From NCBI GenBank assembly GCA_964016885.1, contig OZ024763.1:1860001-1924000 (forward strand): a DNA stretch of 64,000 nt, read 5' to 3'. The notes under the pieces were generated by a model. The model was not told the origin of the DNA, ran no database searches, and was given only the letters and a program-made list of their open reading frames with translations. Positions within the stretch are counted from its first letter, which is position 1. Each line of letters begins with the position of its first letter. Position numbers and translations under genes: made by a program. Shown one piece after another: positions 20,253 to 29,304 of this stretch. Origin of the DNA: Eledone cirrhosa (taxonomy: Eukaryota).

Positions 20253-20487
20253 ATAGAATAGAAAACGAAAATTCAGTGATACATCTGAACTCAATTTATT
20301 GTGCGTTACAATTGTTTCCCTGGTGGACAGCTCGAGACGCGACCATTGTGTGGATCTGTCTGATTCTGGACCCGCAGGTTCGACAGACACAATAAATTGA
20401 GTTCAAATGCATCACTGATTTTTTCGTTTTCTATTCTATCATACTCTGCTCTGTAAGAGCATAGAGTGCTCAACCGGCATACCACAT
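20253..20487 (+). mobile_element. Family C fold-back element with 3' tail
   Basis: Imperfect IR 20253-20303 / 20388-20439; tail atactctgctctgtaagagcatagagtgctcaaccggcataccacata is homologous to 29009-29056 (-). Confidence 0.8.
20303..20340 (-). ncRNA. Hammerhead-like motif with shortened core (family C)
   Basis: gcgt CUCGAG cug-uccac-cag g GAAA c-aauu-g UA acgc: stems I-III and GAAA...GUA present, core deviates from CUGANGA. Confidence 0.45.
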
Positions 20488-20589
20488 ATATATATATGAA
20501 GCTACAATCCTAATTCTATCAGTCTCTACACTCACATCTCCTGCTAATTAGTTATACATTCATATTAATAGATGTAATTATATATATTA

Positions 20590-21060
20590 ATAGTAATAAC
20601 AGTAGTAGTAGTATTAGTAGTGGTAGCAGTAGTGGTGGTAGTAATAGTGGTGGTGGTAATGGTAATAGTAGAAGTAGATGGTTGTGGTGGTGGTAGTAGT
20701 GGTAGTGGTGGTAGTAATAGTAGTGGTGGTAGTAGTGGTAGTAATAGTAGTAGTGTTAGTGGTGGTAGTAATAGTGGTGTTGGTGGTGGTAGTAGTAATA
20801 GTGGTAGTGGTAGTAGTAATAGTAGTAGTAGTAATAGTGGTAGTAGTAGTAATAGTGGTAGTGGTAATAGTAGTAGTAGTAGTAATAGTAGTAGTGGTAG
20901 TAGTAATAGTAGTAGTGGTAGTAGTAATAGTAGTGGTAGTGGTAGTAGTAATAGTAGTAGTAATAGTAGTGGTAGTAGTAATAGTAGTAGTAGTGGTGGT
21001 AGTGGTAGTAGTAGTAGTAGTAATAGTGGTAGTGGTAGTAGTAGTAGTAGTAATAATAAT
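20590..21060. repeat. (TAG/TGG/TAA)n trinucleotide tract
   Basis: Direct reading. Confidence 0.95.
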
Positions 21061-21160
21061 AACGATTAATAATAATGTTCCAGTATTAATATTGATGTAA
21101 TTATAACACACACACACACACACACACACACACACACATATGTGTGTGTGCACATACGTA

Positions 21161-21236
21161 CAGGGTGTCCCAAAAAATGTATACACATTTCAACAGCATT
21201 ATACTCATGGTGTATATATTTTTGTGGGACACCCTG
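21161..21236. mobile_element. 76-bp Tc1/mariner-type MITE
   Basis: TIRs cagggtgtccca..aaaat / atttt..tgggacaccctg flanked by TA on both sides. Confidence 0.8.
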
Positions 21237-22001
21237 TATACATACATGCAGTTTCAGTTTGTTTCACACACATTCAAGCTATTCTCACACACACACACAC
21301 ACACACACATTCAAGCTATTCTCTCTCTCTCTCACACACACACACACACACACACACACACATTCAAGCTATTCTCTCTCACACACACACACACACACAC
21401 ACATTCAAGCTATTCTCTCTCACACAGACACACACACACACACACACACATTCAAGCTATTCTCTCACACACACACACACACACACATTCAAGCTATTCT
21501 CTCTCACACACACACACACACACACACACACACATTCAAGCTATTCTCTCTCTCCCTCTCACACACACACACACATACATACACACATACATACACACAC
21601 ACATACACATACACACATACATACATACACACACACACACACCAAGCTATTCTCTCTCCCTCTCACACACACACATACATACACACACACACACACACAC
21701 ATACATACACACACACACATACACACACACACACACACACACACACACACACACATACACACACACACACATACACATACACATACACACACATACACAC
21801 ATACACACATACACACACCCCCACACACACATACACACACATGCATACACATATACATATATCCAACAAGAGCTATATGCATTTTTACACACATACCCCC
21901 CCCGGATATATATATATGTATATATATATATATATATATATATATATATATATATACATATATTTACCTGCCCCCCACTAATATACATATATATATACAC
22001 A

Positions 22002-22077
22002 TAGGGTGTCCCCCAAAAATGTATGCACACTTAAACAGCATTCTAATAAATGTGTATACATTTTGGGGGACACCCTG
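22002..22077. mobile_element. Tc1/mariner-type MITE, same family
   Basis: (t)agggtgtcccccaaaa...ttttgggggacaccctg with the same internal aacagcatt. Confidence 0.8.
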
Positions 22078-22901
22078 TGTGTGTATATATCTATATATAT
22101 ATGTACACCAACCCTATATATATATAATATATATATATATATATATATATATATATATATATATATATATATATATATATATATATAATATATATATATA
22201 TATATATATATATATAATATATATATACATATATATATATAATATATATATACATATATATATATATATATATATACACATATATATATATATATATATA
22301 ATATATATATATATATATATATATATAATATATATATACATATATATATATATATATACACACACATATATATATATATATATATATATATACACACATA
22401 TACATATATATATAATAAAAAATTGAACAGGGACAGAACAGAGAGGCAGTACGACAAATGTTTATTAGATTCACGCTCAGGAGAGTGAACACATATATAT
22501 ATATATGTACACCAGCCCTATATATATATATACACACATATATATATATAATATATATACACATATATATATATATATATATATAACACACATATATATA
22601 TATGTACACCAGCCCTATATATATATATATATATATATATATATATACACACATATATATGTATATATAGATAATATATATATATATATATATATATATG
22701 TATTATATACATATATATATATGTATGTAGTTATACCCATATACATTTCTACATACATACACCCCCCTCCCCACATATGTTCTTTATTAATAACTCATTA
22801 AGATTTCCTTCTCAACAGCCCTAATTAAATTAATTGAAATATTCAAAATATCTCAGGTCTGTTATTTTATTGGGTTTTTGTTGTTGATTGTCACTGTTTA
22901 A

Positions 22902-27440: not shown

Positions 27441-27783
27441 TATATATATATTGCATTTGTGTGTTCATGTGGATGTGATGTATGAATGTGTGTGTATGTA
27501 TTATGAATATGTATGCATGTGTGTGTATGTATGTATGCATGTGTGTGTATGTATGAATGCGTATGTATGCATGTGTGTGTATGTATGAATGTGTATGCAT
27601 ATTTTCCTTTTGTCTGTCATTCTTCCCCGGGGGAGAAAGTATCTGTTACAGAAATTGAACTTTCATTGCCAGCATTACCAGAAGTTTTAGTTCCAAGTCG
27701 AAAGGTGTGTGTACATGTGTATTGAAATGTGTGTGTATATGTATAGGCATATATGTATGGCATGTATATATATATATATATAT

Positions 27784-27977
27784 ATAGGAACCAGTAAGAC
27801 CCCGACAGCTGAGCTCAAGCCGTTTCGACGGCTAATTCTGGACTGAATTAGCCGTCGAAACGGCTTGAGCTCAGCTGTCGGGGTCTTACTGGTTCCTATT
27901 ACCCACTCTACTACCTCAAGTATTGAGTACTTTGGTGCGTTATGGTCCACCTGGTTCCTTACCACATTTCCTTCGTT
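27784..27977 (+). mobile_element. Family B fold-back element carrying the 3' half of a hammerhead
   Basis: Perfect 55-bp arms around a 6-nt loop (27839-27844); GAAA cggc-ttgagctca-gctg TC ggggtc; tail cactc...gagtac; within (TA)n. Confidence 0.85.
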
Positions 27978-28000
27978 ATATATATATATATATATATATA

Positions 28001-28334
28001 TCATCATCATCATTTTACATCTGCTTTTCCCTGCTTGCAAGGGTGGGACGGGAACTGATTCTGGCTTGATTTCTACAGCTGGATGCCCTTCCTAACACCA
28101 ACCTCATTTACAGTGAGTGCTGGGTGCTTTTTTGCCTTGGCACCTCCACAATCACTTTGCAGTGGAATGATAGGGACCCCAGTCCCTATCATCTCATTTC
28201 TACAGCTGAGTAAATTGGAGCAATGTGAAATAAAGTGTCTTGCTCAAGGAAACAACACATCACCTGGTCTGAGAATTGAACTCAACCTTTCGATTGCAAG
28301 GCCAATGCTCTAACCACTAAGCCATGTGCCTCCA
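28001..28334 (-). mobile_element. CORE-like SINE with RTE tail
   Basis: Reverse-complement homolog of 25648-25995. Confidence 0.88.
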
Positions 28335-28544
28335 TATATATATATATATATATGCTATTACTTGTTTGGGGCAAGGTGTATATTTTATGTATATGTACAA
28401 TAATATTATACATACATACATATATATTCATATATATATATATATATATATATTTAGCGTCCATTTTTCCATGCTAGCATATGTTAGACGAGTTGTCCCG
28501 TTGTGAGACAAGCCAGATCAGATGACCATGTCTTGCTCTAATAT

Positions 28545-28910
28545 CATCATCATCATCAACGTTTAACGTCCGTGTTCCACGCTTGCATGGGTTTGGACGG
28601 GGATTTTCCCACTTGAGGCAAGAGTGGTTGTCTTGCTCGCATAGGACTGTCTGGTGGGTTTTCTACAGTTGGATGCCCTTCCTAACACCAACCACGTTTA
28701 CAGTGTGGGGCTGGGAGGTTTTTACCGTGTTGCCTACACGGCCACATTACAGCGTGGACTGTGTGTTTTTTGTCGTGACACCTACACGATCTCATTTGTT
28801 TTGGCCTGGATGGTGTGGCACCAACACAACTTTACATAGAAGGGGGCGGTGTGGATGGGGTGGGGCTGGTGGGACGGGGGTGTATTTTGTTAGAGATGCC
28901 TACTGACTGT
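28545..28910 (-). mobile_element. RTE LINE 3' UTR fragment (subfamily 1-like)
   Basis: Homologous to 29579-29948, including the (CAT)n tail. Confidence 0.85.
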
Positions 28911-29008
28911 AGCTATATATATATATAAGATAAATATATATATATATATAATATATATATATATATATATATATATATATAATTGGTGTGGGGTGCTTAA
29001 ATTATCCG

Positions 29009-29304
29009 TATGTGGTATGCCGTTTGAGCACTCGATGCTCTTACATAGCAGAGTATAATATCACATAAGAAACGGAGAATCAGTGGTGCAAAGAATTAGA
29101 ATTTATTAGACATATTACAATCATTTCTCTGGCCACCAGCTCGAGACGTATCTGAGGATCTTACGATTTCAGAGCCAGGTTTCGATCATTGCATCGATCG
29201 TGCCTCAAGCTGGTCACCAGGGAAACGATTGTAATATGTCTAATAAATTTTAATTCGTCACACCACAACTGATTCTCCGTTTCTCATGTGATATTATACT
29301 CTGC
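29009..29304 (-). mobile_element. Family C fold-back element with diverged arms
   Basis: Imperfect IR 29048-29145 / 29204-29304; both arms show CUC(G/A)AG-cugg..ccag-rGAAA..GUA. Confidence 0.8.

Follow-up and report, generated by a model that had tools for sequence, protein, structure and literature searches.

Two short inverted structures in the genome of Eledone cirrhosa raise the question of how far the core of a hammerhead ribozyme can be altered in nature. They lie at 20253-20486 and 28983-29305 of a window of 64,000 nucleotides (GenBank assembly GCA_964016885.1, contig OZ024763.1, positions 1,860,001 to 1,924,000 of the forward strand; plain coordinates below are those of this window) and have (TA)n or (CT)n flanks. 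Three arms within them (20303-20340, minus strand; 29110-29151, minus strand; 29204-29240, plus strand) have in common the hexamer CUC(G/A)AG, GAAA, a two-pair stem III with a near-palindromic loop of 4 nt and a GUA triplet, as the original prediction for this locus had noted. The hexamer was there taken for the six-base core of a compact hammerhead, in which stem II has three pairs and an extra purine precedes GAAA. The hammerhead relationship and the positional homology to two other repeat families of the window, A and B, are correct, but the proposed six-base core is not real. Instead, the full arms each contain a predicted type I hammerhead, with a core ~50 nt upstream of the hexamer and a long, conserved stem II. 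As read from their sequence, the arms are the 3′ pseudo-LTR (long terminal repeat) ends of two related high-copy families of Penelope-like elements (PLEs) with Hydra-clade protein motifs. The first locus belongs to subfamily C1 and the second to subfamily C2.

Repeat searches of the species' own genome (3.0 Gb), with three queries, gave 2789, 1966 and 2446 first-look candidates; the arms belong to dispersed repeat families and share sequence far beyond chance. States of the hexamer and the core were counted in arms binned by subfamily (C1 bin, n = 135; C2, n = 97; C3, n = 64). The hexamer is a family state, present in 118 of the 135, 67 of the 97 and 57 of the 64 arms, respectively. Its proposed G/A variation does occur, but as a minority copy mutation, with A in 5/97 C2 arms.

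In the plus arm of C2, the seven bases before a CUGANGA core pair with the seven bases after the GUA triplet. The interval between core and GAAA is an irregular hairpin of 61-63 nt, and the hexamer is its bulged 3′ strand. The resulting fold is a three-way junction with an open stem I and the order core, stem II, GAAA, stem III and UH. Given the weak folding of single copies, its support is comparative. In an alignment of 15 copies from six subfamilies, 83.8% of the cells are paired, and 31 both-side changes are found against 14.6 after shuffling (0/500 shuffles), a count that is not a probability given that the rows are hand-picked and related. The fold also scores above all controls with slid registers, and RNAalifold independently recovers this stem II, with compensatory changes in 6 of 18 pairs. 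GAAA, the A15.1-U16.1 pair and H17 are invariant in 15/15 rows, and stem II contains an internal-loop motif that hardly varies between subfamilies. The G10.1-C11.1 closing pair of stem II is absent; the column beside A9 is unpaired in 13 of the 15 rows and the first pair is C-G. Stem III has two pairs, and its loop is palindromic or near-palindromic. Dimer dependence, also proposed originally, is probable because the stem III loop is palindromic and a short palindromic stem III is the form said to need dimers (PMC4209133).

A compact hammerhead centred on the hexamer can still be drawn, since the hexamer is kept across C1-C5 and can be placed beside a short stem II, with 80% of the cells paired in that register. 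However, covariation is no higher there than in shuffles, the nine proposed pairs showing 3 both-side changes in the 15 rows against 3.0 after shuffling (323/500). The three short arms fold no better than shuffled sequences (z of -0.82, -0.20 and +0.82), and both the folds and RNAalifold pair the hexamer inside the long stem II rather than as drawn originally. The first pair of the proposed stem I is broken in 8/15 rows. For the arm at 20303-20340, its perfect four-pair version needs an allele present in 4/135 arms, the pair-breaking base being found in 108/135. For the arm at 29110-29151, bases 29151-29146 lie outside the arm, on the far side of the inversion junction (29141-29145), where the forward arm's own stem I strand is read in antisense, which makes this stem a junction artefact. 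The third arm has no stem I in the proposed register: in C2 copies the bases before the hexamer are unpaired with those after GUA, a non-pairing state common to 57/97 arms, and the upstream canonical core comes with its own seven-pair stem I. The “extra purine” is a C in 69/135 arms of the C1 bin, and this base before GAAA supplies the 3′ side of a 1x1 mismatch closing the long stem II. The six-base core is rejected on account of its shuffle-level folding and lack of covariation, the latter an outcome that the original prediction had itself named as refuting, and we give it almost no chance of being right. That a variant core exists was right by accident, the variant being the upstream core of C1.

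The states of the upstream core differ between subfamilies. In C2 it is the canonical CUGANGA in 58/97 arms (21 are without the region), with 1,051 exact genome matches; the consensus of this subfamily is CUGANGA. In C1, U4C is joined with A6U in 80 of the 135 binned arms (19 are without the region). Exact C1 matches with the same flanks number 613 with U6 and 5 with A6, none of the 5 has U4, and a C1 version with the canonical core (U4 and A6) has 0 genome matches in these flanks. With shorter flanks, C1 with a base other than A at position 6 gives 1,011 matches. The window copy, with U4 and U6, represents a minority state (4/135 arms). C1 is a hammerhead homologue with an altered core, neither CUGANGA nor CYGANGA, and is not a canonical member. 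C4 and C5 have U4C. In subfamily C3 one base is inserted and position 4 is U or C, the three commonest forms occurring in 32, 7 and 6 of 64 arms. A tree of up to eight random arms per bin (35/181 arms, core omitted, some C2 arms mis-binned as C4) places C1, C5 and C3 together (100/100) under a midpoint root.

Throughout the genome, 14,373 matches are found to CYGANGA followed by 10-40 nt and the same GAAA-stem III block, against 14 for the control; the CYGANGA descriptor appears in PMC13481778. Further U4C hammerhead families with long stem II inserts occur in the window at 19680-19810 (minus strand, truncated) and elsewhere at L040:2730-2850 (plus strand), L102 and L161. Their inserts are unrelated in sequence to those of C1-C5, and a long stem II may have more than one origin. 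Neither A6U in a hammerhead nor a long stem II in PLE hammerheads turned up in searches of open-licence papers.

The identity of the element follows from what lies upstream. Going upstream, C1 copies first cross a stretch with CCAAT and a long TG-rich region and then reach same-strand fragments of a reverse transcriptase (RT) and a GIY-YIG endonuclease. A same-strand GIY-YIG is found upstream of C1 ends in 7/20 fetched regions, and endonucleases 73-81% identical are found upstream of C3 ends, likewise on the same strand, in 10/20 regions. For C2, a GIY-YIG fragment of 63% identity abuts the shared upstream region in 1/19 oriented regions. The RT is followed by the C-terminal GIY-YIG, both upstream of the hammerhead on the same strand; all open reading frames seen are broken, the longest open stretch being 627 amino acids. 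Compared by eye with the Hydra clade, the fragments contain DKT, the CxCX5C linker, CxxC and CxH, lack CCHH, and in the one copy examined have RWR and not RWK. A protein search gave three unnamed matches. The copies sit in (TA)n, their truncated arms are inverted and a tail is optional. Such arms and tail are the usual PLE layout, and a (TA)n target with 3′ hammerheads is described for the Hydra clade in PMC8557442.

Other candidates were rejected. A short interspersed element derived from tRNA, or a stand-alone non-autonomous element, was dropped because copies continue upstream into RT and endonuclease fragments. A non-LTR retrozyme, which would be arranged head-to-tail in tandem with no coding link, is excluded by copies that are solo or inverted and run upstream into the coding element (a bioRxiv retrozyme preprint, 10.64898/2026.07.22.740005, and a review, PMC6765202, served as context). 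A Naiad, Neptune, Poseidon or Nematis partner is also out, the Neptune-like and other PLE fragments being non-contiguous neighbours of some copies. Two Hydra-like matches (36-39%) upstream of C2 copies, at L329 and L331, do not adjoin the shared region and were left out of the counts. Many C1 copies start at one point ~30 nt before stem I (L045:1620-1720 on the minus strand, L172, L176, L178), a boundary that is partly biased because one query began there. In longer C1 and C3 copies this point is preceded by a CCAAT box and a CRE-like motif, suggestive of a promoter and a start site within the pseudo-LTR.

We consider it probable that these PLE ends carry long-stem-II hammerheads of which C2 is likely a slow cleaver acting as a dimer, and C1 is likely impaired and likely spread without cleavage. 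Impairment of C1 is likely because, in a full pairwise mutant screen, single and double mutants of the CUGA turn had low activity except for the C3-G8 swap (PMC9901934), and because A6C cleaves at <0.1 per min and an insertion after A6 also has low activity (PMC3088659); with such a core, the spread of C1 would be independent of cleavage. The presence of C1 at ~1,000 copies with a doubly altered core suggests that cutting may be unnecessary for jumping, and a lizard PLE with dead hammerheads inserts equally well in vitro (PMC11167929). No excess of 5′ junctions, as classified by eye, was seen at the C1 cut site (~9/60 against 9/63 at a control site) or at the C2 cut site (3/12 against ~26 of the first 100 of 165, where the cut-site pattern covers one sub-variant only and hence only the ratios are comparable). 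This is in keeping with uncut templates. The idea that junctions form through stem I microhomology was dropped, with one genome-wide match per family.

Several observations weigh against this account, as does the choice of alignment rows already mentioned. Folds of single sequences are weak (z of -0.75 for C1, -1.79 for C2 and +1.18 for subfamily C3), the minimum-energy fold of subfamily C3 is not the hammerhead, and the stem I of C1, of only ~4 pairs, is missing from the C1 minimum-energy fold. An Rfam scan of one C2 copy at E 10 gave no hammerhead match, and among the 150 listed of 487 matches of the Rfam window scan there is none for the C1 and C2 motif. The link of C2 to the protein is a single locus, the Pfam GIY-YIG match is under the cut-off (E 0.0026), the 627-amino-acid fragment has no Pfam GIY-YIG match, and the probable Hydra-clade placement was made by motifs and not by a tree. 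U4C is common in other hammerhead families of the genome, as seen in ~53 of the first 100 of the 14,373 matches. Finally, nucleotides C3, G5, G8 and A9, GAAA, stem III and the cleavage triplet are the master state in all subfamilies, and such kept catalytic positions fit continued selection for cleavage, C1 included.

The last point leads to the reading in which the elements and the fold are the same, but the U4C and A6U core of C1 works, with rescue coming from the long stem II, from dimer formation or from the element's protein. C1 keeps C3-G8, G5, A9, G12-A14, A15.1-U16.1 and the pairing of stems I, II and III, and has been amplified to ~1,000 copies with the altered core. A viroid with U4C stays infectious (PMC3088659), cleavage by the lizard PLE hammerhead requires its protein (PMC11167929), and the near-invariance of the internal-loop motif of stem II also speaks for this reading. 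Against this stand the low activities of the CUGA-turn double mutants and of A6C cited above, the lack of excess at cut-site junctions, and the different lesion of the sister subfamily C3, whose one-base insertion looks like drift rather than a new consensus; we regard a working C1 as unlikely. It is a more speculative proposal, to which we attach only a small probability, that the long bulged stem II of a Hydra-type lineage makes changes of the CUGA turn tolerable, so that U4C with A6U still cleaves, probably aided by protein, in a class that escapes Rfam and short-loop descriptors and may be widespread. At the other extreme, none of the motifs would cleave, C2 included, and the fold would be kept only as a binding structure or for initiation of reverse transcription. 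The lack of junction excess in C2 as well, and the poor cleavage of minimal PLE hammerheads even as dimers (PMC4209133), are in line with this, but more than 1,000 C2 matches keep the canonical core and the seven-pair stem I, which a non-catalytic role does not require, and we judge it very improbable.

In the preferred account of an impaired C1 and a slowly cleaving C2, the pseudo-LTR promoter would give rise to an RNA, which, left uncut, would be copied into (TA)n by target priming with the element's protein. The products would mostly be short and truncated element ends, in many cases joined to a second arm in inverted orientation, and with an optional tail. The C2 RNA would be cleaved slowly after GUA, as a dimer or with help from protein, the C1 RNA would have low activity, and the long stem II might be kept for folding or protein binding. 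Overall, the sequences are best read as PLE hammerheads of the ordinary sort, whose conserved stem II is unusually long and whose core is drifting.

This lineage bears on the question of why PLEs carry hammerheads. It offers a natural allelic series on one scaffold (canonical, U4C, U4C with A6U, and a one-base insertion), each amplified to many copies, and allows activity to be compared with transposition success. A dead C1 would give natural support to the dispensability of cleavage seen in vitro; an active C1 would widen the known hammerhead core. The long stem II also reveals a hammerhead class missed by standard searches.

The layout of the two loci is given in the table.

Features of the C1 and C2 loci in the window
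Feature	Coordinates	Strand	Remarks
C1 arm	20253..20390	-	5′-truncated 3′ pseudo-LTR end with the whole predicted hammerhead inside; (TA)n terminus
C1 stem I 5′ strand, 4 nt	20387..20390	-	doubles as inversion-junction microhomology
C1 true 5′ core, positions 3-9	20380..20386	-	U4 and A6U in the window copy; master state U4C and A6U
C1 long irregular stem II, 61 nt	20319..20379	-	hexamer 20336-20331 inside, paired to the upstream strand
C1 GAAA, two-pair stem III (palindromic loop) and GUA	20307..20318	-	predicted cut between 20307 and 20306
C1 stem I 3′ strand	20303..20306	-	
Second, inverted C1 arm	20387..20486	+	begins just past the predicted cut site; includes a portion of the terminal tail
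C2 inverted arm with tail	28983..29145	-	truncated at the hexamer and thus without a core of its own
C2 forward arm	29141..29305	+	whole predicted hammerhead; (CT)n/(TA)n terminus
C2 stem I 5′ strand, 7 nt	29145..29151	+	antisense is the minus-arm stem I of the original prediction
C2 canonical CUGANGA core	29152..29158	+	
C2 long irregular stem II, 63 nt	29159..29221	+	weakened by copy mutations in the window copy; hexamer 29204-29209
C2 GAAA, short stem III and GUA	29222..29233	+	predicted cut after 29233
C2 stem I 3′ strand	29234..29240	+	

The window contains other repeats. Family A has inverted arms at 38958-39140, 40458-40620, 46049-46260, 49070-49130 and 12998-13104. Its type I hammerhead is canonical, stem II being short and stem III four pairs long, and the tail motif of the family recurs in the C1 and C2 arms. 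Family B has inverted arms at 27784-27899, 34520-34638 and 44609-44714, which contain the 3′ half of a hammerhead (GAAA, a longer stem III and GUC), the copies examined being truncated before the core. An uninterrupted frame of 1,048 amino acids at 29970-33116 (minus strand) resembles the endonuclease and RT of long interspersed nuclear elements, and 50237-52474 (minus strand) encodes a 745-amino-acid relative. Near-perfect palindromes of ~370 nt (35197-35564) and ~300 nt (43391-43691) are built from other repeats, and tandem arrays are found at 60071-64000 (60-nt unit), 6609-8737 and 15402-16510.

Both the element and the ribozyme are of a known kind, with two twists that look undescribed, the long conserved stem II and the high-copy family with a doubly altered core. 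The elements resemble the Hydra-clade PLEs of Craig et al. 2021 (PMC8557442) in the RT followed by a C-terminal GIY-YIG, in the motif set listed above including the lack of CCHH, in the (TA)n target, in the inverted 5′-truncated arms with an optional tail, and in a type I hammerhead close to the 3′ end. An unpaired or mismatched position beside A9 and G12 is also shared, a mismatch there being seen in many of the Hydra hammerheads of File S2 of that paper. The Eledone elements differ in having RWR, in the one copy examined, where the paper gives RWK, in the 1-2.6 kb between endonuclease and hammerhead, in a hammerhead sequence unlike that of Hydra-1_Obim, and in a stem II of 61-63 nt, as compared with <30 nt in the Hydra rows of File S2. 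The Hydra cores listed in that paper are all canonical, while the C1 core is altered.

The minimal type I hammerheads that Cervera and de la Pena (2014, PMC4209133) described in metazoan PLEs share the location in the pseudo-LTR, the short palindromic stem III, the extra base after A9, the pairs on opposite strands 100-700 bp apart, and the many variable families per genome. Their helix II has 7-8 bp with G10.1-C11.1, whereas here a C-G first pair opens a long multi-bulged hairpin. The core variant in the accessible part of that paper is U3-A8, and U4C with A6U is not among the variants there.

U4C, a change of A6 and an insertion after A6 are all known, with low activity, among the natural core variants of Perreault et al. 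2011 (PMC3088659). Those are single sequences, whereas here such changes are the master states of families with hundreds to thousands of copies on one scaffold. Moreover, A6 is here changed to U, together with U4C. The PAc Poseidon element of Anolis (Frangieh et al. 2024, PMC11167929) is also a PLE with a hammerhead and a tail, and its insertion template is uncut RNA, as the template of the Eledone elements would be. It belongs to another clade and its inactive hammerheads were engineered mutants assayed in vitro, whereas C1 would be a natural case.

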